A stretch of 64,000 nt of DNA. Source: Deltaproteobacteria bacterium. Its GTDB lineage: Bacteria; Myxococcota_A; Polyangia; Polyangiales; Ga0077539. Location of the stretch: contig JAUXYJ010000103.1 in NCBI GenBank assembly GCA_030694465.1, positions 155,057 through 219,056 of the forward strand, written 5' to 3'. Shown here piece after piece: positions 35,084 through 63,705 of this stretch (within the stretch, counting starts at the first letter, position 1; each line of letters starts with the position of its first letter). Below the pieces are notes generated by a model. That model did not search any database. It had not been told where the DNA came from and saw only the letters and a list, made by a program, of their open reading frames with translations. Made by a program: the position numbers and the translations under genes.

Positions 35084-35200
35084 GGTGTCCCGACCTCCCG
35101 ATGTTTGTGACCAAGTTGTGCTGTGAATTTGCTGACCAACGCGACCATCGCGCGGACACCAGAGACACAGCTACAGGCTCGGCACAGACTGCGATACTTG

Positions 35201-35941: not shown

Positions 35942-36291
35942 CAAGAACGGCCCTTGCGTGCCACACGCTCTCGCCCAAAAAGACGAGATGCGCGGCCGCG
36001 AAGTGAGAGAATGCGGGTGGGAAACCTCCGCAAAAAAGTGAGCGCCACGATGGGTGCAGATCCGCGTTGGCTCCGTCAACGGCAGATCGGTCACGCATCA
36101 TCCGATTTTGCGCGGCTGTCACCGAAGGCTTTCTGGCGAAAAGTTGCCTTGGAGCGCGGTTCTGTAGCTTAGCTCGGCCAGATTCGGTCACCTGGACGCG
36201 CCCCACGCGGCGCCGCGGGTGTCCCCCTCTGCCACGAGAGCGGGTTGTTTTGTAGTCCAACACAGCCGCCTCGTGTCATCCGACGGAGCGA

Positions 36292-43812: not shown

Positions 43813-44075
43813 AGGGGATGCAGGCTTGGTGAGATGCGTTGCGCAGAGTGTACGCGTGGGGCCTTCACTTCACTGCACGACGTGTGGGTTCTCACACGAT
43901 CTGTCACGCACATGCGAACGTCGCATACCGCACTCAACCGCGGATGTCTGGTAGCGTCTAACAACATCTACGCTTGTTTTCGCACGAGTCGCTAAGACGC
44001 TGCATTCTGCTGCGCTGAGCACTCGTTCGAGCCAAAGTTTCTATTTTGCTTGTCCACTCTCGCCAGGAGCGATCC

Positions 44076-47182: not shown

Positions 47183-48148
47183 CTAGGACAGAGGGCTCTG
47201 ACCGGCTTCGCCCGCGAGGAGATAGAGCACAGCCATGCGCACAGCGACGCCAGCTTCGACTTGGTCGAGGACCACGCTCTGGGGGCCGTCAGCGATCTCG
47301 GGGTCGATCTCGACGCCCCGGTTCATCGGGCCGGGGTGCATCACGATCGCGTCGGGTTGGGCGAGCTTTAAGATCTTGTGGTTGAGCCCAAAGTGTCGCG
47401 AATACTCTCGCGCAGTCGGAAACAACACCTCGCCCATTCGCTCGCGCTGGATCCGCAACATCATCAGGACATCGGCGCCTTCAGCTGCACGCGCGAAGTT
47501 GTCAAACACTTCGACCCCCAGGCGCTCGATGCCCGGCGGGATCATCGTGCGCGGGCCGCACACACGCACGGTCGCTCCCAAGCGCGTGAGCAAGTGCGCG
47601 TTGCTGCGCGCGACGCGCGAGTGCGTGAGATCGCCCGTGATGGTCACGACAAGCCCGGCGAGCCTGCCCTTGGCGCGGCGGATGGTGAAAGCGTCCAAGA
47701 GCGCCTGGGTGGGGTGCTCGTGCGTTCCGTCGCCTGCGTTGACAACCGAGGCGCGGGTGCGCTTGGCGATAAAGTGCGGCGCGCCGCTTGAGCCATGGCG
47801 CATCACGATCACGTCGGGCTGCATGGCCTCGAGGTTCTTGACCGTATCTAAGAGCGTCTCGCCCTTGGACACACTCGAGCCCGACGAGGACACGTTGACC
47901 ACGTCGGCGCTGAGGCGTTTTCCGGCGATTTCAAACGAGGTGCGCGTCCGGGTGCTGGCCTCAAAGAACAGGTTGATCACGGTCTTGCCACGCAGCGTTG
48001 GGACCTTGCGGATCTTGCGACGCGAGACATCAAAGAAGACCTCGGCGGTGTCCAAAAACTGCACAATCCGCTGGGTCTCGAGCTTCTCGATGTCGAGCAA
48101 ATGCCGGTGCGTAGCGCTCATGGCAGCAACACTCTCTCGTGTGATCAC
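47183..48148 (-). CDS. pyrB: aspartate carbamoyltransferase catalytic subunit
   Basis: STRTR carbamoyl-phosphate motif, HPTQALLD, and HP.P motif. Full length. Confidence 0.95.
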
Positions 48149-48717
48149 GCGCCGTCATCCGCATCGGATTCGATCACCAACGCGCAGTCCGCGCGGTCGT
48201 CCGAGTCAAGCACGACGTCTACGCGGTCGTCGTACGCGGTGTGTACTTCGCGCCCGACGTACTGGGCCGCGATGGGGAGCTCACGATGGCCGCGATCGAT
48301 CAGGCAACAGAGCTGAATGCTCCGTGGGCGGCCATAGTCCATCAGCGCGTCGATGGCTGCGCGCACGGTTCGCCCGGTAAAGAGCACATCGTCGATGAGC
48401 AACACGACCCGATCGTCCAACGGAAAGTGCAGGTCACTTCGGCCCACAATCGGCGCCGCAAGAGATGTCCCGACGTCGTCCCGGTAGAGATTAATGTCCA
48501 CGCTTCCTACCGGGACATCCAAGCCCTCGAGCTCGCGCAACAGCACCCGGAGGCGGTACGCGAGGGGCACGCCTCCGCGGCGAATGCCGACGAGACACAG
48601 GGCCTTGGCCCCACGGTTTTGCTCGGTGATTTCACCGGCCATTCGACGGAGGGCGCGAGAGATCTCGTCCGCATCCATCACTACGCGCTCTGCCATGGGC
48701 TTCATTCGGTGCGACAC
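48145..48717 (-). CDS. pyrR: bifunctional pyrimidine operon regulator / uracil phosphoribosyltransferase PyrR
   Basis: PRPP-binding motif [17 protein letters not shown]. The size and ATGA overlap with pyrB indicate a pyrR–pyrB operon. Confidence 0.9.
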
Positions 48718-50523: not shown

Positions 50524-50906
50524 ACGACGCGACCCCACGCTGGTTTGTCTTCACCCGCGCGCAAACACAATTTGCCCTCTCCGCGCACGCCGTTCGCTGT
50601 GTGCTCCCCTCGATCCGCAGCACGCCGTATCCCACGCCGCTGCCGCTGATGCTCTCGCTCTTTGCCTACGACGGCCGCATCGTCTCGCTTGTCGACCCGC
50701 AGTCAGACTCAAGCGAGTCCATCACGGACGTGCACGTCTGCCACGCTGTCCTCGTGCACAGCGAGCTCGGGGATGTCGCGTTTGCGCTCGACCACACCGA
50801 GGGCTTTGCGAACACGCTCACCACCGAGCAGCGCCTCGAACCCGAGGCCATCTTGCGCATGCTCCGCTGGTCGATTCGCCGCGGAGAGCGCATCTCCGCC
50901 CCCTAA
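50520..50906 (+). CDS. CheW-like coupling protein (divergent)
   Basis: The GTG at 50520 overlaps the upstream stop (GTGA). The segment WFVFTRAQTQFALSAHAVRCVLP…LFAYDGRIVSLVD resembles CheW beta-strands. Confidence 0.55.
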   Translation: MNDATPRWFVFTRAQTQFALSAHAVRCVLPSIRSTPYPTPLPLMLSLFAYDGRIVSLVDPQSDSSESITDVHVCHAVLVHSELGDVAFALDHTEGFANTLTTEQRLEPEAILRMLRWSIRRGERISAP

Positions 50907-50981
50907 CGATCCCCCAAAGGGCCGGCACGTCCCACGTGGCCCCACCCACCTCTTTTGCACCCCCCCCATTGAGCACGCATC

Positions 50982-51911
50982 ATGGACGACCTTCGACTGC
51001 TCTTGCACCAACTTGCAGACCGCCTCGCCGATCGCGCATCGGTCGCTTTGCCCGCAATCGAGCCCGTCCCCGAAGCTCTGCCGAGCGCGGCGGAGCTGAG
51101 CGAAGAGCACGTGTTCTTGAGAGCGTTCTTCGACGCGGTGGTCGAGGGCGACCTCTCGGCTCGCTTGCCCGCCGCCAGCGACCCACTGGTCCAACGCGGC
51201 GAAGAGACCCTCGAGCGACTGCGCACGCTCTTGCGCAGCGCGCGCGAGTCAACCGAAGGCGTCGGGCTCCGCGCAGACACCATCGTCGACGCGATTGAGC
51301 ATGCAGCTTCGGCTGGAAATCAACAGCGAATCATCCTCGATCACGCCATGGACGAGATGCGCCCGCTCTTGGTGAGGCTCAACGATTTGCAGCACGAGAC
51401 CGCGGAGATCACGACGAGCTGCGACCGCATCGCGCTGCTCGCGCTCAACACCGGGATTGAGGGGCTGCGTGTAGGCGGCGAGGTTGCTCGCGCGCTCTCG
51501 ACGCTCGGAGACGAAATCCGCCGACTTGCCGTGCGCTCTTCGCTCACCGCGCGAGAGCTGGGCGAGGCGCTCAAGAGCACAGGCGAGTCGGCCAAACGCG
51601 GATCGACGAACATCGAAGAGGCCCGCGCAATGCTCAGGCATATCGCAGACGAAGTGACCCGCGCGGCCTCATCTGCCGAGTCGGTTCGCATCGCAGACGA
51701 GACCCTCCGCGACGCGACCGCGGGCTTTCGCGTGCTCGACATCGAGAGCGAAGAGCTGCTCCTTCGGCTGGATGACACAGCCACGCGGTTGGCCGACGAG
51801 CTCGTGCGGGCCGGCAAGCTCGCGCAGCGCAATGTGGCGGGCAGCGAAGACGTACGCGCCGCCGTCGCACGCATTCAGAAGCTCGTCGCTGGGGAGCACA
51901 ACGCGCGGTGA
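50982..51911 (+). CDS. soluble methyl-accepting chemotaxis protein (signalling domain only, no TM/sensor)
   Basis: The highly conserved MCP hairpin tip region (IALLALNTGIEGLRVGGEVARALSTLGDEIRRLAVRS) sits within a ~300-aa coiled coil. No hydrophobic segments. Confidence 0.75.
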   Translation: MDDLRLLLHQLADRLADRASVALPAIEPVPEALPSAAELSEEHVFLRAFFDAVVEGDLSARLPAASDPLVQRGEETLERLRTLLRSARESTEGVGLRADTIVDAIEHAASAGNQQRIILDHAMDEMRPLLVRLNDLQHETAEITTSCDRIALLALNTGIEGLRVGGEVARALSTLGDEIRRLAVRSSLTARELGEALKSTGESAKRGSTNIEEARAMLRHIADEVTRAASSAESVRIADETLRDATAGFRVLDIESEELLLRLDDTATRLADELVRAGKLAQRNVAGSEDVRAAVARIQKLVAGEHNAR

Positions 51912-54004
51912 GCGGCGACTCGTTGCCGCTTGACCCAGAGCTCCAAGAGCTCTTTCGCGCAGAGCTCGAGCGTCGCGCCAGCGCCGTCTTGGCCATCGAG
52001 CATGACCCCCGCAGCGCCCTGCGCAATTTGCACGCGCTCCGGGGCGCCGCGGCCATGATGGGCGCAGCGAGTCTGGCTGCCTATTTGCTGCAACTCGAGA
52101 AGAGCATCCAGCGCGGCGAGAGCCTGAGCGCCGAAGAGATCCGCCACAGCCTCATCAGCGCGATCACGCAGACTGGGCTCGACGCCAGCCCGCTACGCGA
52201 CGCGCAGCCGTCACGCGAGCTCACGAGCAGCACTCCCCCAGCGCGCATGCGCGGCTCGGACCCGCCCGAGCGCGGCATCACTGACAGCGCAGCGTCGTGG
52301 CAACAACAGGGCGTCAAACTAGAGATTCGCCAGTTCTTTTTGTCTGAGTCACGACAACGCGTAGAGCAGTTTTCGCGTGCGATCGCGCGCATCTCGCGCG
52401 ATGAGAGCGCAGAGAGCTTTACCGAGCCTCTGCGCGAGGCGTTTAGGCACGTCCATGCGATCAAGGGCAGCGCGTCGACGGTGGGCTTTGATGCCATCGC
52501 CTCGGCCACACACGCGCTCGAGAGCGCCCTCGCGAAGCTGCTCAAAGAGCTGGTCGTGCCGAGCACACAACAGCTCGCAGCGCTCTCGGATTGCGCCACG
52601 CTCTTGGGCGCGATGCTGACCTCACCCGAGCGCTCAGACAGCAGCGTGACCGAGCTCCGCGCTGTGCTTCGCCAAGCACATTTGCTCACTGAGACCGCGG
52701 CAGCGTATGCGCTTGGACACACGGCCCCTGCGGTCGAGCGTGCGCCCGACGCGGTGCGCGTCCCGTCGGCCGCCCTGCACGGGCTCGAAGCACGCATGAA
52801 CGACGTCTCCACGGTGACCGATCGGCTCGAGGCGGTCTTGAGCCGCAGCAGCGAGCACGCGCGGGCCCTCGACGACCTCTCCAGCGGGCTGGACGAAGGC
52901 ATCCGGCGCCTAGGGCCTGCTCGCCCTTGGGGCGTCCCTGCCGAGGTCCTCGAACGATTTCACAGCATGGCCAGGATCCTTCGTGAGTCCGCGATCTCGC
53001 TTGACACCGAGACCCTCGCGGCGACCAAAGAGGTCGAATCCCTCACGTCCATGACCTCGGAGCTACGGCAAGAGCTGCAACGGATCAGCATGACCACCGT
53101 GCAGTGGCTCTACGAGCGTGTTGCCCCCGTCGCGCGCGCAGCAGCGACCACTGTGGGCGTCGAGCTGCGCATCGAGCGCACGGGCGAAGACGTCGAGCTC
53201 GCGCGCAACATCGCCGAGCGCTTGGTCGAACCCATGGCGCAGCTCGTGCGCAACGCGGTGGTCCATGGCATCGAAGCGCCGACGCGCCGCATGGCCCTCG
53301 GAAAACCCGTCCGCGGTCGCATCGCGCTCAGAGCCGTGCGGCTGGGCGAAGTGCTGCGGCTTACCATCGAAGACGACGGCAGCGGCGTGGACACCGACGC
53401 AGTCCGGCGCGCCGGCGAACGCGACGGTCTCATTGACCGCTCGGCCTCGCACGACGAGCTGTTATCCCTTCTGTTTCATGCGGGATTCTCAACGCGCAGC
53501 CGCGCGGACACCAGCGCAGGGCGAGGCGTTGGGCTCGACATCGTGCAACGTGAGCTCATCGAGCTCGGAGGCAGCGTCTCGATCCACTCGACGAAGGGAC
53601 GCGGCACCGAGTTTGTACTGGAGCTCCCTGCACGCGCGGGGATGCAGCGCGTCCTGGTCGTGGGAGCCGGCAACCGGCGATTTGCGATCCCGATTGACAA
53701 CGTGATCGAAGTTCGCCTGGCAAAAACCGACGAAAACTGCATCTCGCTCCTCGCCTGGCTCGGACTGGACGACACCTACGGGTCGTCGAACAGCGTCGTA
53801 GAGCTCTCGATCCGCAGCCACCGTATCTCGCGCAGCGTCGATTGGGTCGAGCGCGCACGAGAGGTCATTGTGCGCCCGCTCCCTGCGTGGATCGCGGGCA
53901 TTGATTCGTGGTCTGGCGCGATCGTTGAACCCGACGGGGGGATCTTGCTTGTGCTGGACACCGACCGACTCGCGGCCCAGCACGAAGGCAACTTTATCGG
54001 GTAA
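51908..54004 (+). CDS. cheA: chemotaxis histidine kinase CheA with two Hpt domains and C-terminal CheW-like domain
   Basis: The GTG at 51908 overlaps the MCP stop (GTGA). The Hpt domains are marked by NLHALRGAAAMMG and FRHVHAIKGSASTVGFD. HATPase_c motifs (N-box NAVVHGIE, G1 EDDGSGVD, G2 GRGVGLD.V) follow, then the CheW-like domain VLVVGAGNRRFAIPIDNVIEV. No receiver domain. Confidence 0.9.
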   Translation: MSGDSLPLDPELQELFRAELERRASAVLAIEHDPRSALRNLHALRGAAAMMGAASLAAYLLQLEKSIQRGESLSAEEIRHSLISAITQTGLDASPLRDAQPSRELTSSTPPARMRGSDPPERGITDSAASWQQQGVKLEIRQFFLSESRQRVEQFSRAIARISRDESAESFTEPLREAFRHVHAIKGSASTVGFDAIASATHALESALAKLLKELVVPSTQQLAALSDCATLLGAMLTSPERSDSSVTELRAVLRQAHLLTETAAAYALGHTAPAVERAPDAVRVPSAALHGLEARMNDVSTVTDRLEAVLSRSSEHARALDDLSSGLDEGIRRLGPARPWGVPAEVLERFHSMARILRESAISLDTETLAATKEVESLTSMTSELRQELQRISMTTVQWLYERVAPVARAAATTVGVELRIERTGEDVELARNIAERLVEPMAQLVRNAVVHGIEAPTRRMALGKPVRGRIALRAVRLGEVLRLTIEDDGSGVDTDAVRRAGERDGLIDRSASHDELLSLLFHAGFSTRSRADTSAGRGVGLDIVQRELIELGGSVSIHSTKGRGTEFVLELPARAGMQRVLVVGAGNRRFAIPIDNVIEVRLAKTDENCISLLAWLGLDDTYGSSNSVVELSIRSHRISRSVDWVERAREVIVRPLPAWIAGIDSWSGAIVEPDGGILLVLDTDRLAAQHEGNFIG

Positions 54005-54016
54005 TTCACTGGGGAT

Positions 54017-56362
54017 TTAGCGTCTGGGGCAATGGGACGTCGCCGGCCGCAAGAGCTCACTCATGCGCGAGCGGAGCTGCTCGGCGACCGCGGACTCTTG
54101 GCTGTACACATTGCGCCGCTCGGCCGCGTCGCGATCGAGCTGAAACAGCTCCCAGCTGTTGCGTGTCGCGTCGTGGAGGAGCTTCCACGGGGGCGCTACG
54201 AGCGCGAGGCTCGTCGGACGGAGATCTCCACCGGGGGACACATCTGCCGCGAGGGCACCACGCCACGGGATCTGCGCTTCGGGTGCGCTCTGAAGCAGCG
54301 GGACCAGCGACCTCGCGGGCGAGCGCAGCGTGGGCGTGCGGCCTACGTACGCGAGCGCGGTGGGATACAAATCCATCAACGAGACGAGGCTGCGACGCGG
54401 CCCCGGACGAATCCCCGGACCCCGCACTACGAGCACCACCCGCAGCGCCTCTTCGTGCGCGTCAAACGCGTGGTAATTTACACCGTGTTCGTTAAACGCT
54501 TCGCCGTGATCGCTGAACACCACGACGATGAGCGGGCGAGCCTCTGCGATGCGGTTGGCCGTGCGAAACAAGCGAGGCAAGAGCGAGTCTACGTGGGCGA
54601 TCTCTTCGTCGTAACGGTCGATCGGTTCGTGGCCGAAATCCCGAGGCTCTGTGCGATCGGTGTAGGGCTCGTGCGGATCGACCATGTGCACCCACAAGAA
54701 GAAGGGCCGCGCCTGACGACCCGCGTTGAGGAGCCAATCGCGCGCGTGGTCTACGGTCACGTACGCGGCATCTTTGAACCCGTTGCCCTGCTCGACCGTG
54801 TCAAATCCCTGAAAAAATCCAGCCGTTAGCGCGAAGTAGCTCGTGTTGGTGTAGGCCCCTGTCGCGTAGTTTTCTACGCGGAGCACCTCGGCGAGCATCT
54901 CGTTCGCGTCACGCAATGGCGGAAACTGCGGGTCGCGTCCCCAGCACAGGCTCGCCGGAGGGCGCCCTGAGAACGCGCTCGCGAACGCGCGGATGGTCTG
55001 CGGCGCCGTGGTGTACGCCTGATCAAATCGCGCGGCGTTCTGTGCGAATTCTCTGAGATTGGGCGTGGTGTCACGCGCGTATCCGTAGAGCGATGTGTGA
55101 TCCGGGCGCATCGTGTCGATCGAGATAAACAGCACCGAGGGGTGGTTGCTCGCGGGAGCGACGAAGGGCGCAGGGCGATCCTCGGGCGCGGGCACAGCGT
55201 CGAGCCCTGTGCAGTTTTCGTCCCGTCCATTGCCTGGAATATCTCGCGCGAGTGGGTTGATCCGAGGATCGCGGTCGTTGCAATCGCCCCCGCCAAAGTA
55301 CCGGCCGTAGCCATCATGGTCCGCGTCAGTCCAGCGCTGTAGCGTCGGAAAAATCTTTGAAGCGAGCAGCGACCGCTGAGTGATCGCGTCGGTAATCCAT
55401 GGGTTTTTTCCGAGCGTCATCGCGCTCAACCCAAACGCGACGACCACTGTGCTCGCCAGCACCCACGTCACCGAACGCGCGATCGTGGGTCGAGCTCTCT
55501 GCACCCACCGCAGCGCGAGCCCATAGCCCACCAAGCCCATCAGCGACAACCCGAGCGGGCGGAGGTCCAGACGACTTAGAACGTTTCGTCCTGCAAAAAC
55601 AGTGACCAATAGAGACAAGCCTGCGAGCGCTGCCACCACCAATCCCACTGCGCCTGGGCTCGCCCAGCGACGTCGCCGGGACAACGGGAGCTCGAGCATC
55701 ATGGCCGCGACCATGGCCGCGATCACCCCAAGCCCGAGCGACGCCACGCCCGCCGAGACGATCAGAATCGCAGCCAGCATGGGCGTCCGCACGCTCTGCA
55801 CGATGAGCACAGTGGCCCGCAGCGCGATGACTGCCGCAGTGAGCGTGCCAATCGAGGCCATCACCACACGCAGGGCGCCACGTTGGTCCTCGGCGAACCA
55901 TCGCGCGGGGCCCTCAAGAAAATAGGCACGCGCGCGCTGCACCGAGCCTCGACGAAGCGAAGAGAAAACCGCAATGGCGTGCAAAATCCCTAGCATAGAG
56001 CCCAAGGGGGCGATCGCACCGAGGGCATACGCGAGCAGCCACCCCAGCCCACTCGCGCGACGCTCAAACGCCGAGGTCCGCGCAAAGGCAACGAGTGTGT
56101 CTGTAAGCGCGAGCGCGCACGAGACGCCAAGCGCGGCGCTCACATGGGCCAAGAGCAACACGCGCAGGGTGGGCGGCTCGATCGCAGTGGGCGTCTCGGA
56201 CGACGCGGTCGTGGGAGCAGATGTCACGGTAAATCGCTGGATCGCAGAGAGCTGCGCAGACGCGTTCGACACTAGCGCGAATCGACAGCGCGATGCGTAG
56301 TCATTTGTCGCATCGGTGGGTGCTCTGCGCGGCAACGCGAGTACACTGCCTGCACCTTTCAT
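54017..56362 (-). CDS. membrane-anchored sulfatase-like (alkaline-phosphatase superfamily) hydrolase/transferase
   Basis: At least 8 N-terminal TM helices. C-terminal domain with SIDTMRPDH metal-binding motif and a TTAPQT putative Thr nucleophile region (LtaS/EptA/arylsulfatase-like). The exact start is uncertain. Confidence 0.75.
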   Translation of the reverse strand: MKGAGSVLALPRRAPTDATNDYASRCRFALVSNASAQLSAIQRFTVTSAPTTASSETPTAIEPPTLRVLLLAHVSAALGVSCALALTDTLVAFARTSAFERRASGLGWLLAYALGAIAPLGSMLGILHAIAVFSSLRRGSVQRARAYFLEGPARWFAEDQRGALRVVMASIGTLTAAVIALRATVLIVQSVRTPMLAAILIVSAGVASLGLGVIAAMVAAMMLELPLSRRRRWASPGAVGLVVAALAGLSLLVTVFAGRNVLSRLDLRPLGLSLMGLVGYGLALRWVQRARPTIARSVTWVLASTVVVAFGLSAMTLGKNPWITDAITQRSLLASKIFPTLQRWTDADHDGYGRYFGGGDCNDRDPRINPLARDIPGNGRDENCTGLDAVPAPEDRPAPFVAPASNHPSVLFISIDTMRPDHTSLYGYARDTTPNLREFAQNAARFDQAYTTAPQTIRAFASAFSGRPPASLCWGRDPQFPPLRDANEMLAEVLRVENYATGAYTNTSYFALTAGFFQGFDTVEQGNGFKDAAYVTVDHARDWLLNAGRQARPFFLWVHMVDPHEPYTDRTEPRDFGHEPIDRYDEEIAHVDSLLPRLFRTANRIAEARPLIVVVFSDHGEAFNEHGVNYHAFDAHEEALRVVLVVRGPGIRPGPRRSLVSLMDLYPTALAYVGRTPTLRSPARSLVPLLQSAPEAQIPWRGALAADVSPGGDLRPTSLALVAPPWKLLHDATRNSWELFQLDRDAAERRNVYSQESAVAEQLRSRMSELLRPATSHCPRR

Positions 56363-56364
56363 TC

Positions 56365-57285
56365 ATGAAACGATTTCGCAATCTCGATGATCTCGAGCAC
56401 GAGCGTTCGATCCAAGGTGTGTTGCGCTGGCAGCTTGAGCGTGCGCAACAAAAGCGACTGATCGGGACACCCGCTTCGGTCGTCGACAACGACGGATCAC
56501 TGCTCAAGGGCGCGCCTAAGGCCAGCCTCACTTGGCTCGGTCACGCGAGCTGGCTCGTCCAGATCGCGCAGACCAGCGTGATGATTGACCCGGTACTCTT
56601 TGCGAGGATCGCGCTGACGGTGCAGCGGCACGCAGGACCCGGGCTCACGCTCGCGCAGCTCCCGACGATCGACGCGGTGCTCATCACGCACAACCACATG
56701 GATCACATGGACGCGCCCTCTGTGATGGCCCTCGCCAAGCAGTGTCCGTGGGCGACTTTTGTGGTGCCCGAGGGGCTGCGTCCCTGGTTTGTGCGCCACG
56801 GGATCGAGCGCTCGGTCGAGCTGCCGTGGTGGTCTTCGACCAAGGTGGGGGGCGTAAAGATCCAAGCGGTCCCATCGCAGCACTGGTCTCGCCGAGGGCT
56901 GCTCGACGAAGACCGCACGCACTGGTGTGGCTACGTGATCGAGGGGGACGGAAGGCGCGTGTATCACACCGGAGATACCGCTTATTTCACTGGATTTTCA
57001 CAGATCGCCGCGCGGGTGGGTGCGATCGACGCTGCGATGCTCCCGATTGGCGCGTACGAGCCACGCTGGTTTATGCGATCGCAACACATGAACCCCGACG
57101 ACGCTGTGCGCGCCTTCGAAGACCTCCGCGCGACGCGCTTTGTCGCGATGCACTGGGGCACGTTTATGCTCACCGACGAGCCCCTCGACGAGCCCCCGAA
57201 AGCACTGGCTCGCGCGTGGAAATCCCATGGAATTACCCAAGCCAATCCCGAGATTCCCGCCATCGGAGAGACGCTGTGGCTCTGA
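56365..57285 (+). CDS. MBL-fold metallo-hydrolase (NAPE-PLD-like)
   Basis: TWLGHASWLVQ… and ITHNHMDHMD (the H-x-H-x-D-H motif), plus a downstream His/Asp. Confidence 0.8.
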   Translation: MKRFRNLDDLEHERSIQGVLRWQLERAQQKRLIGTPASVVDNDGSLLKGAPKASLTWLGHASWLVQIAQTSVMIDPVLFARIALTVQRHAGPGLTLAQLPTIDAVLITHNHMDHMDAPSVMALAKQCPWATFVVPEGLRPWFVRHGIERSVELPWWSSTKVGGVKIQAVPSQHWSRRGLLDEDRTHWCGYVIEGDGRRVYHTGDTAYFTGFSQIAARVGAIDAAMLPIGAYEPRWFMRSQHMNPDDAVRAFEDLRATRFVAMHWGTFMLTDEPLDEPPKALARAWKSHGITQANPEIPAIGETLWL

Positions 57286-57938
57286 TCTTTGACACGGGCT
57301 CTGAGACTCTCAACCAGAGACTCAGGGCCCTCACGCCGAGTGTCCACGCGGCCTGCGAGGGCGCAGACAGCGCGCATGACCTCGCCCACGTCGAGCGCGT
57401 CACACGCAACGCGCAGAGGCTCTCGCGCGCGACCGGCGCACGGACAGAGATCTCGGTGACCGCGGCGCTGTTGCACGAGCTGTTTAACTACCCCAAAGGG
57501 CACCCAGACTCGCGCAATTCGGGACACGTGTGCGCGCAGCACGCGAGCGCACTTTTGACCCAGCACGCGTGGGATCAAGAGACCATCACGCAGGTGCATT
57601 ACGCCATCGCAGTGCACCCGTTCTCGCTCGGCGTGGTGCCAACAACGCTTGAGGCCCAGGTGCTCCAGGACGCCGACCGACTCGACGCCATCGGAGCCAT
57701 CGGGATCGCGCGATGCTTTGCCACCTGCGCCGCGATGGGCCGACCCTTTTATGACCCAGACGACCCGTGGAGCGAGCACCGCGCGCTCGATGACAAGCTC
57801 TGGGGCGTCGATCACTTTGCGCTGAAGTTAGACAAACTCGCGGGCTCCATGCACACCGAAGCGGCGCGCGAGATGGCACACGCGAAGAGCGCTTTTATGA
57901 GTGAATTCCTGGCGCAAATGCGCGCAGAAGTTGGGTAG
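57272..57938 (+). CDS. HD-domain phosphohydrolase
   Basis: HD-domain motif pattern (H…HD…H…D: AHDLAHVERV, LHELFNYPKGH, LQDADRLDAIGAIG). The start is assigned to the GTG at 57272, overlapping the upstream stop. This is uncertain. Confidence 0.65.
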
Positions 57939-57986
57939 CGAGCCCGCACAATCGGGCGGTCTCAGATGCAAGCGCGAAAGCAGTGA

Positions 57987-58014
57987 TTGACAAGCGGGGG
58001 ATGTTTGTTAGTTT
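57987..58014 (+). promoter_or_regulatory. putative sigma-70-like promoter for tRNA-Ser (TTGACA-16-TAGTTT)
   Basis: TTGACA at 57987–57992 and TAGTTT at 58009–58014 with a 16-nt spacer, 16 nt upstream of the tRNA 5' end. Only a sequence match. Confidence 0.4.
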
Positions 58015-58030
58015 CCGCGGCCCCTTCGTT

Positions 58031-58120
58031 GGAGAGCTGTCCGAGTGGTTGAAGGAGCCTGACTCGAAATCAGGTGTACCGGTAACGGTATCGGGGGTTC
58101 GAATCCCTCGCTCTCCGCCA
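58031..58120 (+). tRNA. tRNA-Ser (anticodon CGA), CCA encoded
   Basis: GGAGAGC acceptor stem, long variable arm, anticodon loop CUCGAAA, T-arm GGTTCGAATCC, 3' GCTCTCC-G-CCA. Confidence 0.85.
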
Positions 58121-58243
58121 ACGAAGTGTTTGTCGCTCGCGGCACGCGCTTTGTTTGCACGTTTTCTGTCCTGGGTTGTCCTTCTGCGCGCCAAAGCCCT
58201 CGTTTGCTCGCGCTGGACCCACACAGAGTCTCAAAAGTTCTCT

Positions 58244-58330
58244 GGAGAGCTGGCCGAGTGGTCTAAGGCGCAGCACTGGAAATGCTGTGTACGGGGAACC
58301 GTACCGAGGGTTCGAATCCCTCGCTCTCCG
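58244..58330 (+). tRNA. tRNA-Ser (anticodon GGA)
   Basis: Same acceptor/T-arm as the first copy, anticodon loop CUGGAAA, long variable arm. No encoded CCA. Confidence 0.85.
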
Positions 58331-58530
58331 CCCAATATCCCCTCCTTTTGCCTCACCCCCGCTTCACCACGGGCCCTGAGCGCGCTGGGATCCCACCACA
58401 GACCGTGGTAGGCACTCTCCCCTATTGGCCTCGTAGCCCTGAATCCCACGCCGCCGTGGCCCTCACGGGCGCACTTCGCCGCAGGATTCTCCTACGCATC
58501 TCACTTTTGCCCCGAGGACCTCCCCTCCCT

Positions 58531-59055
58531 GTGCGAACCATCCCACTCTCGACCCTCGCGCTCACCCTCTTGGCCGCATGCAACCGCGCTCCCCCCGAGC
58601 CCCCGGTTGTATGGCCTGCAGAGACCCCAGCGCCCCCCGGAGCGCCCGGACCGGGCACGCAGACCCGGAGTGGCACCCCGCCCACGACGCCGCCCACTGT
58701 GACCGTCCCCTCGGGCGACAAGCCCACGACCCTCCGCACGCGAGACCTCATCGTGGGCACCGGCGCCGAGGCCACCAACGGGCGCACCATCCGCGTGCAA
58801 TACACCGGCGTGGCTTGGTCGACCCGGCGCAAGTTCGACTCGTCGTGGGACCGCGGCGGCGACCCCTTCTCGTTTACGCTCGGCGCCGGCGGAGTCATCC
58901 CAGGCTGGGACCGCGGCGTGCTCGGCATGCGCGTTGGCGGCCGTCGTGAGCTCGTAATCCCGCCCGATCTTGGCTACGGCGAGCGCGGCGCAGGCGCAGA
59001 CATCGGCCCCAACGAGACGCTCGTCTTTGTGGTCGACCTCGTCTCGGTGCAATAG
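58531..59055 (+). CDS. FKBP-type peptidyl-prolyl cis-trans isomerase, lipoprotein
   Basis: GTG 58531. Lipobox LTLLAACN. Canonical FKBP domain (V.Y.G…G..FDSS…PF.F.LG.G.VI.GWD.G..GM.VGG.R.L.IPP.LGYG). Confidence 0.9.
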   Translation: MRTIPLSTLALTLLAACNRAPPEPPVVWPAETPAPPGAPGPGTQTRSGTPPTTPPTVTVPSGDKPTTLRTRDLIVGTGAEATNGRTIRVQYTGVAWSTRRKFDSSWDRGGDPFSFTLGAGGVIPGWDRGVLGMRVGGRRELVIPPDLGYGERGAGADIGPNETLVFVVDLVSVQ

Positions 59056-59057
59056 CC

Positions 59058-59576
59058 TCAACCCGGCGCGAGCTCACCCGGGATCAACATCATTTCGAGC
59101 ATCGTGACGCGAAACCCAAGCCTCGCGAACAACGCCTGCCCTCCTGCGTTTTGTGCGGCCGTGTGCAAAAGCACCCGCGTCGCGCCCCGCGCACGCATCC
59201 TCTCGACAAACGCCCGCACCAGCGCCTCTCCGACGCCCGCTCGTCGCGCGCGCTCGTCCACAAAGAGGTCGTGCAACACCGCGCTCTCGTCGAGCAACAG
59301 CTCCCAATTGCGCGGCTCACGGCGCCCGAACGCGTAGCCCATCAACGCACTCTGCCCTGCAATTTCGGCCACCAACACGACACTCGCGTCGTTGGCCATC
59401 TCGCCCTGCAGGTAGCGCGCATACCCCTGCTCGATGGACTCTCCCGCGCGCAAAAACCGCGCAGCGTCCCACGCGTGATGGAGCCTCACGAGCTGCGCCG
59501 CGAGCACGCCAAGCTCCGCAAGATCCCCCGCTGTCGCAGGCCGCACACGCACGCTTGTTTCGGTTTGCTCAGTCAT
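59058..59576 (-). CDS. GNAT family N-acetyltransferase
   Basis: Acetyl-CoA-binding motif …RRAGVGEALVRAF…ARGATRVLLHT…. Confidence 0.75.
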   Translation of the reverse strand: MTEQTETSVRVRPATAGDLAELGVLAAQLVRLHHAWDAARFLRAGESIEQGYARYLQGEMANDASVVLVAEIAGQSALMGYAFGRREPRNWELLLDESAVLHDLFVDERARRAGVGEALVRAFVERMRARGATRVLLHTAAQNAGGQALFARLGFRVTMLEMMLIPGELAPG

Positions 59577-59666
59577 GGTTGTCCGCGCACAAAGTAGCAA
59601 CCCCCAGCGTTCGTCGCATTCGAGTGCACAGAGACTCTGCACAATTGCGCTACTCTGCGAGGCGCC

Positions 59667-60464
59667 ATGGCCCGCTTACCGAATGCAGCTCACGATCGCT
59701 CACGCCTGACCTTTTGGCGCGATGACCAAGGCCTCTCGACCACCGAATACATTATTATTCTCGCGCTCATCGCGATCGGTGCCGTCGCAGCGTGGCGTGG
59801 CTTTGGCGCCCGCGTCCGCACCCGCGTCGCGCAAGGGAGCGCCGCGGTAGACACGCTCCAAGCCGGCATGGGCGGCGCAGGCGCGGGCAACGCCAACGGC
59901 AGTGGTGGCGGATCAGCCAACGGAAACGGCGCGGGCGGTGCCAACGGAAGCGGTGGGGACCCCGGCAATGGCGCGGGTGGCGCTGGCAACGCGGGTGGCG
60001 CGGGTGGCGCTGCGGCAGGCGCAAACGGCGCAGCAGGTGCAGGCGCAAACGGAGCAAACGGTGCAAACGGTGCAAACGGTGCAAACGGCACAAACGGCGG
60101 GGGCGCTGCGACCCAAACCGAGCACAGCAACGTCACCACGGGCGGAGCCAATGACGGCGACGCAGGCATCGCGGCGCTCGAGGCCCAAGAGGCCGAGAAG
60201 CTCCGCACGCGGAGGCTGATGGCGTTTGGCGTCGCGGCGCTCTGCATGCTGATCTTGATCGGCATCGCCGTGCGCAACGCCTACGTAGCCAAAAAGATCC
60301 GCGAAGACGCCGAGCGCGAGCGCAACGAGGCGCACGACGCGGGCACGTACAACCTGCAAGGCGCCGCGGGTGGCGGAGGCGGTGGCCCTCCGGTCCATGG
60401 CGCGGGCGGCGACGACGGTGGCTCACGCATGAGCCTCGCGGATATCACGATCCCCCCTCCGTGA
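59667..60464 (+). CDS. Flp/Fap-type pilin-like protein with long Gly/Ala/Asn-rich C-terminal extension and second TM segment
   Basis: The N-terminus ends in …DQG/LSTTEYIIILALIAIGAV, fitting the Flp prepilin cleavage consensus G/XXXXEY followed by a hydrophobic helix. The 265-aa length is far above typical Flp (50–80 aa). It contains a (GAN)n repeat and a C-proximal TM (LMAFGVAALCMLILIGIAV). Confidence 0.5.
   Translation: MARLPNAAHDRSRLTFWRDDQGLSTTEYIIILALIAIGAVAAWRGFGARVRTRVAQGSAAVDTLQAGMGGAGAGNANGSGGGSANGNGAGGANGSGGDPGNGAGGAGNAGGAGGAAAGANGAAGAGANGANGANGANGANGTNGGGAATQTEHSNVTTGGANDGDAGIAALEAQEAEKLRTRRLMAFGVAALCMLILIGIAVRNAYVAKKIREDAERERNEAHDAGTYNLQGAAGGGGGGPPVHGAGGDDGGSRMSLADITIPPP
60045..60098 (+). 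repeat. tandem 9-bp repeat (GCAAACGGN)×6, in-frame (Gly-Ala-Asn)n
   Basis: Direct reading of six consecutive units: gcaaacgga, gcaaacggt ×3, gcaaacggc, acaaacggc. It lies within the Flp-like CDS. Confidence 0.8.
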
Positions 60465-60483
60465 GCGACGCCACAATACGTGG

Positions 60484-61905
60484 TTATTCGCTGCGCTTGA
60501 CGTACTCGAACTCGATCGGGCGGCCCTTGATTCCGTGCTTGGGGGGCGCAATCCAGTTGGCCATTTTGCCCGGCTCGAAGACGGGCTTGGTCATCAGACT
60601 CTTCACGTAGGCTTCGTCCTCGGGGCTCGGGAGCCACTCGTTTTTGTGCGCGTTAAACTCAGCCTCGGTGATGATCTTGCCTGCGGGATCGAAGTGAATC
60701 CCTGCATAAATCCCGGACTGACGGTGAAAGCGTGAGCTCGGCAACGTGAGCGCAAAGTTCACGCCACGCTCAGCGAGCAGGCGGTTCCACTTGTCCACGC
60801 CGCGCTGGCTGTCTTCGATGTACTCGCCGCGCAAGACCTCGTTCATGGCGTTGCGCATCGGGACCGCTTCGTCGACAAGACGACCGTCTTTGACCATCGT
60901 GAGGGTCATGGTCTGATCGAGCGCGATGTGGTCCTCGTAGCGGTCTTCTTTGGCGCGGCCCTTGAGTCCACCTGCGAAGAAATTCGCAGCGTTTGAGCTG
61001 ACTTCACCACCGAAGAGATCCAACGAGACGCTGTACCAACGGTTGAGATATCTCTGGATCGTCGGGAGATCAATCCCGCCCTGCGCACGCGCATCTTGGT
61101 TGGGGTCCTGCGCCATCAGCTCGCACGTGCGATCCAGCACACGGAGCACGCCGGTCTCGCCCACAAACATGTGATGCGCTTCTTCGGTGAGCATAAACCG
61201 CGTGGTGCGCGCGAGCGGATCAAACGAGCTCTCGCTGAGCGCGAGCAGCTGATACTTGCCATCGCGGTCGGTGAAATACGTAAACATAAAGAAGCTCAGC
61301 CAGTCTTGGCAGGGCTCGTTAAAAGCCCCGAGAATCCTGGGCTTATCGTCTGCGCCCGAGCGCCGATCCAAGAGCCCGTCTGCCTCTTCGCGGCCATCAC
61401 GACCAAAGTACGTGTGGAGCAAATAGACCATGGCCCACAGGTGCCGCCCCTCTTCGACGTTGACCTGAAACAGGTTGCGAAGATCGTAGAGCGACGGGCA
61501 CGTGAGCCCAAGCAATCGCTGCTGTTCAACGCTCGCGGGCTCGGTGTCTCCCTGGGTCACAATCAACCGCCTGAGCGCGTTGCGGTGCTCGCCCGGAATC
61601 TGTTGCCACACGGGCTTGCCGTAGTGATCTCCGAAGCCAATCGTGCGGTCCTTGATGGGATCGGTCAGAAAGATTCCCCAGCGATAATCCGGCATTTTGA
61701 CGTAGTCAAAGTGCGCCCACCCGTCGGGGCTCACGCTGACCGCCGTGCGAAGATAAATCTGGTCTTCTTGAAAGCCCTCGGGGCCCATTTCTTTCCACCA
61801 GTCGACAAAGCGCGGCTGCCACTCTTCGAGCGCGCGCTGCAAGCGCTTGTCACTGGTGAGATCCACGTTGTTAGGGATCTTCTCGTTGGTCGCGATTGAG
61901 CTCAT
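60484..61905 (-). CDS. boxB: benzoyl-CoA 2,3-epoxidase (oxygenase) subunit B
   Basis: Near-collinear with BoxB as I recall it (…EKIPNNV.L…LQRALE.WQP…YLRTAVSV.P.GWA.F.YVKM.DYRWGIFL…VTQGDTEPASVEQQR.LGLT.PSLYDLRNLFQVNVEEGRHLWAMVYLLH…). A di-iron enzyme of correct size (473 aa). Confidence 0.85.
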   Translation of the reverse strand: MSSIATNEKIPNNVDLTSDKRLQRALEEWQPRFVDWWKEMGPEGFQEDQIYLRTAVSVSPDGWAHFDYVKMPDYRWGIFLTDPIKDRTIGFGDHYGKPVWQQIPGEHRNALRRLIVTQGDTEPASVEQQRLLGLTCPSLYDLRNLFQVNVEEGRHLWAMVYLLHTYFGRDGREEADGLLDRRSGADDKPRILGAFNEPCQDWLSFFMFTYFTDRDGKYQLLALSESSFDPLARTTRFMLTEEAHHMFVGETGVLRVLDRTCELMAQDPNQDARAQGGIDLPTIQRYLNRWYSVSLDLFGGEVSSNAANFFAGGLKGRAKEDRYEDHIALDQTMTLTMVKDGRLVDEAVPMRNAMNEVLRGEYIEDSQRGVDKWNRLLAERGVNFALTLPSSRFHRQSGIYAGIHFDPAGKIITEAEFNAHKNEWLPSPEDEAYVKSLMTKPVFEPGKMANWIAPPKHGIKGRPIEFEYVKRSE

Positions 61906-62034
61906 CGATGCTCTCCTCGAAAGGGTTCAGTGCAATGTTACAGGGCTGCATCACCGTGCCTACGCGCCGCGCAGGCCCCACGCTCTACGATGCCGTCGGC
62001 ACACGCTGCGTGTCACAAGAAGCAGCAAAAATGC

Positions 62035-63705
62035 TCACGTACGGCGCCAGTCAAACTCGGGTCGCTCGGGCTGTCCGTACATGGTCAGCGCGCCGCGAGG
62101 GCCCGTCGAGTTCGGTCGCGTAAAGATCCAGTTTTGCCACGCCGACAGGCGCCCAAAGATCTTGGTCTCTAGGGTCTCAGGGCCGGCGTAGCGTAGCGAA
62201 GCTTCCATCCCAGTGAGCGCGTCGGGGCTGATCGAAGCGCGCTCTTCAATGGCCAACCGCACCTCGTCGTCCCAGTCAATCGCGTCGGGCGCCAGCGTGA
62301 CGAGCCCGACCTTCTCGGCCGCACGTGCGTCGTAGATCGAGCACTCTGCGAGCAATTTTGCAGGTCTTTCGGGATCATGCAGAAATCGTGTCTGCAGACG
62401 GCTCAGCCCGTTGGACATCAAGAACGCGCCCCCGTTGAGCGCAGAGAGCTGCACCGTCGCAGGCGACTCAGCGTCGGGATCATCGCGGTGATACGTACGA
62501 TCCGCAGCGAGGCTCAGCTCGAAGAGCGAGCCCACAAAGCACGAGCCCTCGCGCACAAACGCGAAGATCGACCGCGCGCTCTGGTCCAAACGCTTGAGCA
62601 CGCGACGCTGAAACAACAGCACCTCGTGCACAAATCCGTCGTCGCGCGAGGCAAACATCGCCGCGTCCGAGCTGAGCACTTTCGCAGGGTCGCCCTCGGT
62701 TTCGAGCAGCAAGAGCCCAATGGTCTCGTGGTTGAACCGAAGATTCAGGAGCGCGTCGTCGAGCTCGCGAAAGGCACGCAGCGCCCACAGCGCGTTGCCC
62801 TGCTCGCGGAGCGCCGTGGCTCCCGTGGGCGTGTCCGTCGTGGGCGCACGCACAGTGATCCGAGCGACATGTGCGGCCTGATCGATCTGCAACGTGACAT
62901 GACGATAGTCTGCTCCGTCGCTGCGATACGTCGCACCCAAGGGCTCGAGGACGAGCCCCTCCCAGTCACTTACACGCGTCGATTGGGCCACCAGGGTCTG
63001 CACATGCGCGTCCACTGTCGCGACAAACTTCGACCGCGGGACCACCTTGTCGACGAGGTTCCATTGCGCGGCGCGCGGCCCGCGGATTCCCTCGGCGAGC
63101 GTGCAAAACACGTCCGCCAAATCACGACGCACCTTGCGCTTGTCCACCAGCCGCGTGAGCCCGCCGGTCCCCGGCAACACCGCTAACAACGGCACCTCGG
63201 GCAGAGACACCGCGCTCGACCCATCATCGCTCAGATAGATCTCATCGCACGCGAGCGCGAGCTCGTAGCCCCCACCCGCACAGGGACCATTGACCGCGCA
63301 CAGGGTCTTTACGCCACCCTCGGCGCTGAGCTCTTCGAGACCCAAGCGCGTCTCGTTGGTGTACTTGCAGAAGTTCACCTTAAAGGGATGCGTCGACATG
63401 CCCAGCATGTAGATGTTGGCACCCGAGCAAAACACCCGGTCTTTGCCGCTCTGCACCACCAGGGTCTTCACCGCGGGGTGCTCAAATCGCAGGCGCTGGA
63501 TCGCGTCGGCGAGCTCAATGTCCACGCCCAGATCGTACGAGTTGAGCTTTAACGGATAGCCAGGCCGCAGCCCGCCGTCTTCGTCAATGTCCATGCTCAA
63601 TCGTGCGACCGCGCCGTCTACGGCAAGCTTCCAGTGCTTGTATCGGCTGGGGTGCGTCTCGAATCGAATGGGCTCTTGCCCGTGCGGGGTCACTGTGTCG
63701 GCCAT
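62035..63705 (-). CDS. boxC: 2,3-epoxybenzoyl-CoA dihydrolase (crotonase superfamily, double-domain)
   Basis: 556 aa, matching the BoxC size. The N-terminus …YKHWKL…ARL.MDIDEDGGLRPGY.LKLNSYDLGVD.EL.DA… and two enoyl-CoA hydratase-like halves. It lies directly upstream of boxB. Confidence 0.85.
   Translation of the reverse strand: MADTVTPHGQEPIRFETHPSRYKHWKLAVDGAVARLSMDIDEDGGLRPGYPLKLNSYDLGVDIELADAIQRLRFEHPAVKTLVVQSGKDRVFCSGANIYMLGMSTHPFKVNFCKYTNETRLGLEELSAEGGVKTLCAVNGPCAGGGYELALACDEIYLSDDGSSAVSLPEVPLLAVLPGTGGLTRLVDKRKVRRDLADVFCTLAEGIRGPRAAQWNLVDKVVPRSKFVATVDAHVQTLVAQSTRVSDWEGLVLEPLGATYRSDGADYRHVTLQIDQAAHVARITVRAPTTDTPTGATALREQGNALWALRAFRELDDALLNLRFNHETIGLLLLETEGDPAKVLSSDAAMFASRDDGFVHEVLLFQRRVLKRLDQSARSIFAFVREGSCFVGSLFELSLAADRTYHRDDPDAESPATVQLSALNGGAFLMSNGLSRLQTRFLHDPERPAKLLAECSIYDARAAEKVGLVTLAPDAIDWDDEVRLAIEERASISPDALTGMEASLRYAGPETLETKIFGRLSAWQNWIFTRPNSTGPRGALTMYGQPERPEFDWRRT

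Follow-up and report, generated by a model that had tools for sequence, protein, structure and literature searches.

What is a gene that begins like a Tad/Flp pilin, the smallest type of pilin known, and then runs on through a long spacer into a second membrane helix? Gene X (59667..60464, + strand; ATG start, 265 aa plus stop) lies in the 64-kb stretch of DNA analysed here, which we refer to as the window. A preliminary description had called it a giant Flp-type gene, and X is indeed unusually long for the family: Flp/Fap pilins measure about 50-90 aa (about 45 when mature) and have no further membrane segment, whereas X has 265 aa and a second transmembrane helix (TM2). X is a real gene, with ten full-length homologues of 241-301 aa (~50% identity) in MAGs of Myxococcales/Polyangiales; conservation was scored on an alignment of 11 sequences, the window protein and these ten. 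The starting Met-Ala is invariant among the aligned members and the N- and C-terminal blocks are kept across all ten homologues, with a variable spacer between them. X represents a rare chromosomal gene family confined to a few myxobacterial lineages; besides the source of the window, X is carried by JAEUKI01, JAXLYJ01, JAAFIF01 and LNEO01. A scan for promoters and terminators gave no signal above shuffles.

The pilin signature is contained in the first 68 residues. Residues 1-22 (59667..59732, +) form a basic leader ending in D-D-Q-G, after which the N terminus continues as ...RDDQG|LSTTEYIIILALIAIGAVAAW; the register of the leader agrees with that of Flp pilins, and a prepilin peptidase is predicted to cleave after Gly22. 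Residues 23-68 (59733..59870, +) correspond by alignment, hhalign and AF2 to the mature Flp-like helix, with the motif LSTTEY, a hydrophobic first transmembrane segment (TM1) and an amphipathic C-half; AF2 models a helix at residues 25-68. In the leader, for which the family consensus is D-E-x-G, D19 and G22 are invariant in all 11 sequences and position 20 is nearly so (E in 10 of 10 homologues, D in the window protein), and T25, E27 and Y28 of the mature helix are likewise invariant. Positions of the G22, T25, E27, Y28 and D19 type are required in Flp pilins for prepilin cleavage and assembly. X provides the sole match in the window to a G-x4-E-Y/F motif followed by a hydrophobic helix (1,162 six-frame ORFs, 112,524 aa), and a search for a second Flp-like ORF in the window found none.

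Profile searches connected this domain to pilins of tad loci. The N-terminal profile of X matched 307 short proteins, mostly of 56-90 aa, many of which carry a precomputed PF04964 annotation or are named 'Flp family type IVb pilin' at their source; the median length of the best 120 N-terminal homologues is ~69 aa. The names of cluster members gave no link between short Flp pilins and the X-bearing MAGs. The closest relatives, P0015 and P0012, are encoded directly upstream of a Peptidase_A24 gene, with RcpC, secretin, FHA domain and T2SSE ATPase genes further downstream and, at the P0015 locus, TadE and T2SSF genes in addition. When X was compared with P0015 using hhalign, the probability was 99.3% (E 9.5e-21) and the match covered 52 of the 58 P0015 residues, and Caulobacter PilA (PDB 8u1k) aligned in register with X (PilA residues 3-44 of 45, E 0.1). 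These Tad (type IVc) pilins share with X the Gly-ended leader, the x4-E-Y motif, the hydrophobic helix and the amphipathic C-half, and the whole 45-residue mature pilin can be aligned. The profile, hhalign and the invariant motif show that the prepilin consensus noticed in the preliminary description belongs to a genuine Flp-type domain, homologous end to end over residues 1-68 with the small Flp pilins that head related Polyangiales tad loci.

X nevertheless lies below every curated Flp HMM threshold. PF04964 (gathering threshold 32.2 bits) gave no match at E<=1, only DUF4244 appearing (E 0.02), and Pfam and NCBIfam scans of X, of its first 68 residues and of three homologues returned no Flp model. 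The preliminary description had held that the N-terminal similarity would be spurious if no Flp HMM matched. Such a match is indeed missing from both collections, but this says little about homology because P0015, a genuine Polyangiales tad-locus Flp used as a control, also falls below the PF04964 cut-off (20.0 versus 32.2 bits). After this control we dropped HMM silence as evidence against Flp homology; the Flp clade of Polyangiales escapes the Flp model of Pfam.

The pilin domain is followed by a Gly/Ala/Asn/Ser low-complexity spacer at residues 69-152 (59871..60122, +; 92% G/A/S/N over 84 residues), which is predicted to be disordered and periplasmic (AF2 pLDDT <50, with disorder predicted at residues 69-160). 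Low complexity had been thought to extend over some 200 residues; it occupies about 84, and residues 153-265 are conserved, ordinary in composition and include TM2. Within the spacer, a 9-bp in-frame tandem array (60045..60098, +) encodes (Ala-Asn-Gly)5-Thr-Asn-Gly. Its units are, in order, GCAAACGGA, three copies of GCAAACGGT, GCAAACGGC and ACAAACGGC; what had been described as six perfect repeats are therefore three identical units and three variants (TRF, 5.9 copies, 93% matches). Each orthologue bears its own, differing in-frame spacer repeats, and one relative (L002) has a comparable (Gly-Ala-Asn)n array in the same place (period 9, 7.2 copies, 78%). Copy number among strains could be compared with the sole other copy of the window locus (L001), which is 100% identical, array included; between species the spacer does differ in length (60-108 residues in the homologues). 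The 9-bp array is best regarded as one among many lineage-specific in-frame repeats of the spacer rather than a special switch, and frame switching by the array is impossible because the unit length is divisible by three. A collagen-like reading of (G-A-N)n was rejected, as Gly does not stand at every third residue throughout the spacer.

Beyond the spacer, conservation resumes. Residues 153-181 (60123..60209, +) form a conserved juxtamembrane segment (HSNV..GG..D.D....L..QEAE.LR) in which a long AF2 helix, spanning residues 161-235, opens. Residues 182-205 (60210..60281, +) comprise Arg-Arg and then the second hydrophobic helix (LMAFGVAALCMLILIGIAV). This helix had already been noticed in the preliminary description; alignment, hydrophobicity and AF2 (pLDDT 76-87 in this region) place it at about residues 184-204, and all family members have two hydrophobic segments. 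R182, R183, A186, F187, V189, A190, C193, L197, I198 and N204 are invariant, and the protein has one Cys. Residues 206-265 (60282..60461, +) consist of a charged helix (AKKIRED...), in which A208, K209, K210, R212 and E213 are invariant, and a Gly-rich stretch. This tail is predicted to be cytoplasmic from the established topology of Flp pilins and the basic cluster after TM2, although TM2 has basic residues on either side, so that sequence by itself does not fix the topology. The C terminus is the motif S-L-A-D-I-T-I-P-P-P (residues 256-265; 60432..60461, +), with S256, L257, D259, I260, T261, I262, P263, P264 and P265 invariant; a distant member, P0134, terminates in ...DTIPPPPPR.

SLADITIPPP served as a family-specific search pattern. 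The C-terminal module was found in five clusters, all of the X family, in an exhaustive search of 1.84 billion representatives, and in 4 of 185,579 species genomes. Searched for as an independent domain with a word-indexed method, it gave three matches only (84-112 aa), which cover just the C-terminal part of full-length members; because one of these begins 117 nt from a contig end, we read them as truncated gene calls. Across all sequences recovered, the module occurs only in fusion with the Flp domain. The alignment and predictions define an architecture composed of a Flp domain, a spacer of variable length and predicted disorder, a juxtamembrane segment, TM2 and a tail ending in SLADITIPPP.

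Gene order in relatives gave X a different neighbourhood from that in the window. In four species genomes, and in the metagenome contigs with enough flank, X is flanked by pyrB and the gene for the RseP protease; the full order is pyrR-pyrB-X-fn3 protein-RseP, with the fn3 protein gene present in most relatives. In the window, pyrB and pyrR (47186..48678, -; 88.7% and 82.6% identity by tblastn to the L002 genes; Pfam OTCace), which in relatives stand directly upstream of X, lie 11 kb from it. The block running from pyrB to HD is present but inverted, which has left X beside a GNAT gene and boxB; the relatives' fn3 partner, RseP, 4HBT and OPT were sought in the window and none was found, only pyrR and pyrB being present. 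The comparison indicates that X is syntenic with pyrB and RseP and unrelated to box genes or tRNAs, and its position near the box genes and two tRNA genes of the window is probably an accident of rearrangement. X had been called an orphan, and this holds more widely: a Pfam scan of the large ORFs in the 64-kb window found no tad/cpa gene, and there is no tad gene within +/-10 kb of X at the relatives' loci inspected.

Which known proteins does X resemble in this arrangement? The genes of Flp/Fap pilins belong to or adjoin a tad/cpa locus that has a TadV/CpaA prepilin peptidase, whereas X is unlinked to tad genes and adds ~197 residues of spacer, second TM helix and predicted cytoplasmic tail. 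TadE/TadF/TadG pseudopilins (PF07811) are, like X, larger proteins with a prepilin-like N terminus, and they serve Tad machines as non-bulk subunits. Their periplasmic domain is folded and they lack a second TM helix; X differs in its E-Y motif and full Flp domain, and it gave no match to the TadE model at E<=1. Eight shorter proteins (118-132 aa; P0095, P0098-P0100, P0116, P0118, P0124, P0125) occur in other Myxococcota MAGs, so the combination of Flp domain, linker and TM2 recurs. They share with X a G|LST(V/T)EY pilin domain, a low-complexity linker and a TM2 with a basic stop-transfer, but their linker is much shorter, they lack the juxtamembrane block and the SLADITIPPP tail, and no C-terminal homology to X was detectable. 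A VWA_2 gene follows both of the short genes inspected. In the same phylum, the Tad-like Kil system of Myxococcus xanthus uses Flp-type proteins as its major pilin, KilP, and as adapter pilins, KilK and KilO; the major pilin had to be searched for, three of the four minor-pilin Tip complexes have separate gene clusters, and fibre components with specialised roles other than that of bulk subunit are on record (PMC12075869). Our likening of Kil pilins to X follows the descriptions in the sections of that article used here, not sequence; those sections mention neither a second TM helix nor a membrane tether for them, and the word 'transmembrane' is absent from the article. Kil pilins have their place at the tip, but a tethered X could act only at the base.

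Our leading interpretation, to which we give about even credence, is that X is a chromosomal, lineage-restricted gene whose product is a Flp (type IVc/Tad) pilin tethered to the membrane. Its most likely function would be that of a peptidase-processed pilin that is kept in the inner membrane and engages a Tad machine without being released. X would insert with its leader in the cytoplasm, like Flp prepilins, and a putative TadV/CpaA-type prepilin peptidase encoded elsewhere would cut after Gly22. The mature helix could then dock via Glu27 (+5) into the Tad platform or the fibre base. TM2 would anchor the protein in the inner membrane, so that the 60-108-residue periplasmic spacer would act as a leash, its 9-bp array representing ordinary slippage-driven variation in leash length, and the cytoplasmic polyproline C terminus may bind a putative partner. 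Its place of action would be the machine's base, where X would serve as an anchor, terminator or assembly reporter and not as a bulk fibre subunit. The invariant motif, Flp homology, restriction of the C-terminal module, AF2 helices, synteny and recurring architecture support a tethered pilin; the distance from any tad gene (none within 64 kb in the window or 10 kb in relatives) and the failure of full-length X to match a Pfam or NCBIfam Flp model count against it.

A broader proposal, which we consider rather unlikely, is that X and the shorter Flp+TM2 proteins of Myxococcota form an undescribed class of leashed pilins. Here, a processed Flp domain at the base of a Tad/Kil fibre would stay attached to the inner membrane through a disordered leash (~30 nm at maximum extension) and would anchor or terminate the fibre, or pass pilus extension or tension across the membrane to a cytoplasmic partner of SLADITIPPP; in this second role it would be a built-in mechanical reporter of contact with surfaces or prey. 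To our knowledge, Tad/Flp pilins are thought to work solely as freely extractable subunits, and a search of the available literature turned up no relevant case of a pilin that has a second TM helix or is extended by Gly-rich sequence. A conserved pilin permanently fixed in the inner membrane would matter for how Tad fibres are anchored, terminated and sensed, which are open questions for which Caulobacter and the Myxococcus Kil system are relevant models, and X offers a simple genetic handle, being a single gene with clear motifs to mutate.

The same second TM helix suggests another use of the domain. TM2 is incompatible with extraction of X into a fibre, so the pilin domain may have been co-opted (exapted) simply to anchor the protein in the membrane; the Flp-derived helix would then serve only as a signal-anchor that is never cleaved, and X would span the inner membrane twice and have a job unrelated to pili, for example as a periplasmic spacer or scaffold or as a partner of the secreted fn3 / C25-like protein encoded downstream in relatives. 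X is an orphan at every locus seen, a co-directional gene for a 650-667 aa fn3 protein starts 3-170 nt after it in most relatives, and the shorter two-TM Flp-like proteins precede VWA genes and not tad genes in the two cases inspected. However, invariant G-1, E+5 and Y+6 together with the D-E-x-G leader (D20 in the window protein) would be unexpected in a mere hydrophobic anchor, the pilin remains alignable with tad-locus pilins over all 45 residues and thus beyond its membrane part, and X is intact in the window and on the P0010 contig, both of which are missing the fn3 partner. We regard exaptation as a serious but less than probable explanation.

We find it improbable that X is instead a regulated-proteolysis substrate of RseP, the site-2 protease encoded nearby in relatives, or that its terminal IPPP(P) stalls ribosomes to sense TM2 insertion and control the downstream gene. 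Both ideas draw on the relatives, in all of which an RseP-type M50 protease gene lies convergent with X, one or two genes downstream, and most of which have a co-directional downstream gene, and on an invariant polyproline at the extreme C terminus, ~60 residues past TM2. Yet the window copy has neither RseP nearby nor a co-directional downstream gene and keeps all motifs, the synteny could be mere conserved gene order, and in the Pfam and NCBIfam scans X resembled no known arrest peptide or anti-sigma factor.

The preliminary description had instead read X from its neighbours in the window, as cargo acquired horizontally at a tRNA-Ser insertion hotspot and filling the slot of boxA, with the 9-bp array as a contingency device that expands and contracts. 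The neighbours themselves are as described: a GNAT gene, then boxB and boxC (60484..63705, -; TIGR03225, 773 bits, and TIGR03222, 793 bits, both above cut-off), convergent with X with 19 bp between stop codons, and two tRNA-Ser genes (58031-58120 and 58243-58334) 1.3-1.6 kb upstream of X, the only RNA features in an Rfam scan. No boxA adjoins boxB, and a search of the window for BoxA by ferredoxin and FNR motifs found no Fer4/FNR-type ORF and no CxxCxxCxxxCP motif. An exact look-up of BoxC, aimed at sequence past the end of the window, matched no record. X itself contains none of the domains of BoxA (TIGR03224), that is, neither two [4Fe-4S] ferredoxin motifs nor an FNR-type FAD/NAD(P) domain, and box clusters without BoxA have been reported elsewhere (PMC10803450). 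In relatives X keeps company with pyrB and RseP and never with box genes, and five fetched X loci were scanned without finding a tRNA. The 24-nt tRNA 3' end is not seen outside the two tRNAs even when three mismatches are allowed, so no repeat of it bounds an island; the window holds no other bounding direct repeats, and no integrase domain was found among its scanned ORFs. The GC content of X is similar to that of its neighbours except in the Gly/Ala-rich spacer, and it is the box genes that are lower (0.59-0.635). The unit length, the presence of only three identical units and the unchanged array in L001 also speak against a contingency device. The island reading is largely refuted and retains very little probability, boxB and boxC are context with no functional link to X, and the account built on the box cluster and a tRNA island can be set aside.

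That X is a chance motif or spurious ORF, as low-complexity sequence, silent curated HMMs and the long ORFs that high-GC DNA gives on both strands might suggest, is already refuted by the homologue alignment with its conserved terminal blocks and deserves next to no credence, given also N-terminal profile E-values down to 2.4e-16 (5.8 billion proteins searched), a Flp-type motif unique within the window and a GC3 of 0.83 in the C-terminal third of the gene.

The open reading frame at 59667–60464 (+; ATG start, 265 aa), referred to here as X, encodes a protein with the N-terminus MARLPNAAHDRSRLTFWRDDQG/LSTTEYIIILALIAIGAVAAWRGFGARVR. X is the only one of the window's 1,162 six-frame ORFs in which a hydrophobic helix comes after a G-x4-E-Y/F motif, and the window holds no second Flp-like ORF. 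Gly, Ala, Ser and Asn make up 92% of residues 69–152; residues 153–265 are ordinary sequence, including a second hydrophobic helix at ~184–204 (TM2), and GC3 in the C-terminal third is 0.83. AlphaFold2, run on the family alignment, predicted a helix at 25–68, disorder at 69–160, a single long helix at 161–235 and a disordered tail (mean pLDDT of 55; 76–87 around TM2).

X has no Flp match in NCBIfam and no Flp_Fap match in Pfam, where DUF4244 (E 0.02) is its sole match. We regard this as uninformative because P0015, a 58-aa pilin (L012 10001–10177) encoded immediately before a Peptidase_A24 gene in the tad locus of a Polyangiales MAG, also falls below the Pfam Flp_Fap cut-off (20.0 bits against 32.2 bits). 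That locus further encodes TadE, RcpC, a secretin, an FHA protein, a T2SSE ATPase and two T2SSF proteins. The curated Flp_Fap model under-detects the Polyangiales-type Flp clade. We then used a profile of the family N-termini (A2), which matched 307 proteins with E-values as low as 2.4e-16. These are mostly 56–90 aa long, many come from Polyangiales or Myxococcota, and many carry a precomputed PF04964 assignment or the name 'Flp family type IVb pilin'. The precomputed PF04964 assignment is absent from most of the top Polyangiales-type matches. Profile alignment of A2 with P0015 (hhalign) gave a probability of 99.3% and an E-value of 9.5e-21 over residues 5–56 of 58, and P0012, a second close relative, also stands at the head of a tad locus. 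Compared with the PDB, A2 matched the mature PilA of Caulobacter in the same register (8u1k, residues 3–44 of 45; E 0.1). On sequence criteria, residues 1–68 of X are a whole Flp pilin. The preliminary description is largely right. Its Flp-like assignment is supported by the homologues, the A2 matches and the alignment to P0015, and the orphan status of X by Pfam scans of the large ORFs, which found no tad or cpa component in the 64 kb.

X has ten full-length homologues (241–301 aa) among the 5.8 billion proteins searched. All come from MAGs or metagenomes of Myxococcales type, and JGI names six of them 'Flp pilus assembly pilin Flp'. The family aligns at ~50% identity, with an invariant Met-Ala start, a D-E-x-G leader, and L-S-T-T-E-Y and the helix conserved through AAWRGFGASVR. 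The spacer that follows (60–108 residues) differs in length and sequence in each member. Beyond it, conservation resumes with HSNV..GGATDVDRAN..LDQQEAEALR, an invariant Arg-Arg, TM2, AKKIREEA and an invariant C-terminal SLADITIPPP. By this conservation, X is a real gene. A word-indexed search with a profile of residues 149–265 (A3) added only three proteins of 84–112 aa; none of these matches full-length members beyond their C-terminal part, and in the one examined 117 nt separate the gene start from a contig end; we therefore read them as truncated calls. An exhaustive HMMER search of 1.84 billion representatives with A3 returned five clusters, among them P0134, a distant 227-aa member with the same layout (G/LATIEY, spacer, RR-TM2, ...DTIPPPPPR). 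A scan of 185,579 species, with one genome each, found the family in four genomes, all Myxococcales, Polyangiales or 'Deltaproteobacteria' MAGs. As judged by these searches, the C-terminal module is unique to the X fusion and the family is very narrow. X is a membrane-tethered Flp pilin paralogue confined to a few myxobacterial lineages.

X thus comprises a complete Flp prepilin, a spacer, TM2 and a conserved tail. The tethered layout recurs in eight shorter proteins from other Myxococcota (118–132 aa), with a Flp prepilin N-terminus, a short linker and TM2. In both long contigs that carry such genes (L006 10001–11357 and L007 10001–11566), a VWA_2 gene comes next and tssF/tssG/clpV-like T6SS genes lie ~2.5–4.5 kb farther downstream. 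The literature searched, the coverage of which is incomplete, yielded no account of a pilin that has a second TM helix.

In Flp prepilins, Gly-1 is needed for cleavage, and Glu+5 and Tyr+6 for assembly. The main rival explanation is that the pilin helix is now a plain anchor and X is unrelated to pili. The orphan position of the gene favours this reading, but Gly-1, Glu+5 and Tyr+6 are invariant in a family of ~50% identity, which argues against it. In the reading we consider most likely, that of a tethered pilin, the established Flp prepilin topology would place the leader in the cytoplasm, the spacer in the periplasm and the tail in the cytoplasm. A prepilin peptidase encoded elsewhere would remove 22 residues; the pilin helix could then dock onto the Tad platform or the base of the fibre, with TM2 keeping the protein in the membrane. 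If extended, a spacer of 60–108 residues would reach ~20–35 nm (our estimate, at ~0.35 nm per residue), a span similar to the thickness of the cell envelope. The invariant SLADITIPPP terminus is a candidate docking motif for a cytoplasmic partner. A base-of-pilus role in Tad or Kil systems, if shown, would raise the interest of this gene. Myxococcus shows that the genes of Flp-type pilins can lie apart from those of the machine and that such pilins can take on specialised, non-bulk roles (PMC12075869).

The genomic context of X in relatives refutes two further proposals, that X occupies the boxA slot and that it is cargo of a tRNA-Ser island: relatives carry X between pyrB and fn3/RseP with no box or tad genes within 10 kb, the five X loci scanned (L002, L003, L008, L010 and L011) are free of tRNA genes, and we found neither a repeat of the tRNA 3' end in the window nor an integrase domain among its scanned ORFs. 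In the window, boxB and boxC (60484–63705, −; TIGR03225, 773 bits, and TIGR03222, 793 bits, respectively) converge on X without an adjoining boxA, and no ferredoxin/FNR-type BoxA candidate occurs in the 64 kb; box clusters without BoxA are on record (PMC10803450). Within the neighbourhood, GC is lowest in the two box genes (0.59 and 0.635; others 0.65–0.66), a compositional hint that they, and not X, are the newcomers. Upstream of X lie tRNA-Ser(cga) (58031–58120), tRNA-Ser(gga) (58243–58334), an FKBP gene (58282–59055, +) and a GNAT gene divergent from X (59058–59576/59642). Both in the ORF list and in the gene call on a Logan contig, the FKBP ORF overlaps tRNA-Ser(gga); its true start is probably farther downstream, ahead of the lipoprotein-like segment LSTLALTLLAAC.

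In relatives the genes are arranged as (MBL)-sulfatase-CheA-MCP-CheW-response regulator(PatA_N)-pyrR-pyrB-X-fn3 protein-RseP(M50)-4HBT-cytidine deaminase-OPT. The arrangement is complete in the species genomes L008, L010 and L011; in the fourth (L002/L009), other genes replace MBL and sulfatase, and metagenome contigs show it in parts, one without the fn3 gene. The window also has this block (pyrB at 47186–48112, −; pyrR, chemosensory genes, sulfatase, MBL and HD), but turned round with respect to X, which fits an inversion of the pyrB...GNAT segment. We infer one breakpoint just upstream of X; the far one is undocumented in relatives. No fn3 or RseP gene was found in the window, where boxB and boxC stand downstream of X instead. 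An 897-aa ORF (44046–46739, +), convergent with pyrB, fills the place of X, the fn3 protein and RseP in relatives and has weak similarity to CglD, a gliding-motility lipoprotein (NF033765, 81.6 bits; cut-off 400 bits). The chemosensory cluster (48901–54004, +; PatA_N/DUF4388 response regulator, CheW-like gene, MCP and CheA) is syntenic with pyrR-pyrB in most inspected relatives, L003 excepted, and its proteins are 47–56% identical to those of relatives, against ~89% for PyrB. In relatives, X is usually followed by the gene for the fn3 protein (L002 10909–12912; also L003, L005, L008, L010 and L011), a secreted protein of 650–667 aa. Besides an fn3 domain (E 3.8e-7), this protein shows a weak match to Peptidase_C25 (E 0.0065), and its Cys-rich/TM/Arg-rich C-terminal tail resembles the MYXO-CTERM sorting signal.

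The preliminary description reported six perfect 9-bp repeats at 60045–60098. The in-frame tandem array stands, but only three copies are identical: it reads GCAAACGGA, three GCAAACGGT, GCAAACGGC and ACAAACGGC (TRF, 5.9 copies, 93% matches). Its 9-nt unit, of which just three copies are identical, rules out a switch of reading frame. In each orthologue the spacer consists of short in-frame tandem repeats peculiar to it, their periods (6–48 nt) being nearly all multiples of three, and the L002 spacer has a 9-bp array encoding (Gly-Ala-Asn) at the same position (7.2 copies); the array in X is therefore a normal slippage product in a length-tolerant spacer. Window positions 50484–63376 recur with 100% identity in the Logan contig L001, which is therefore uninformative on strain variation. 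Elsewhere in the window (32894–36094, −), a flotillin/SPFH protein (729 aa) adjoins a YqiJ/NfeD-like membrane protein, a typical pair.
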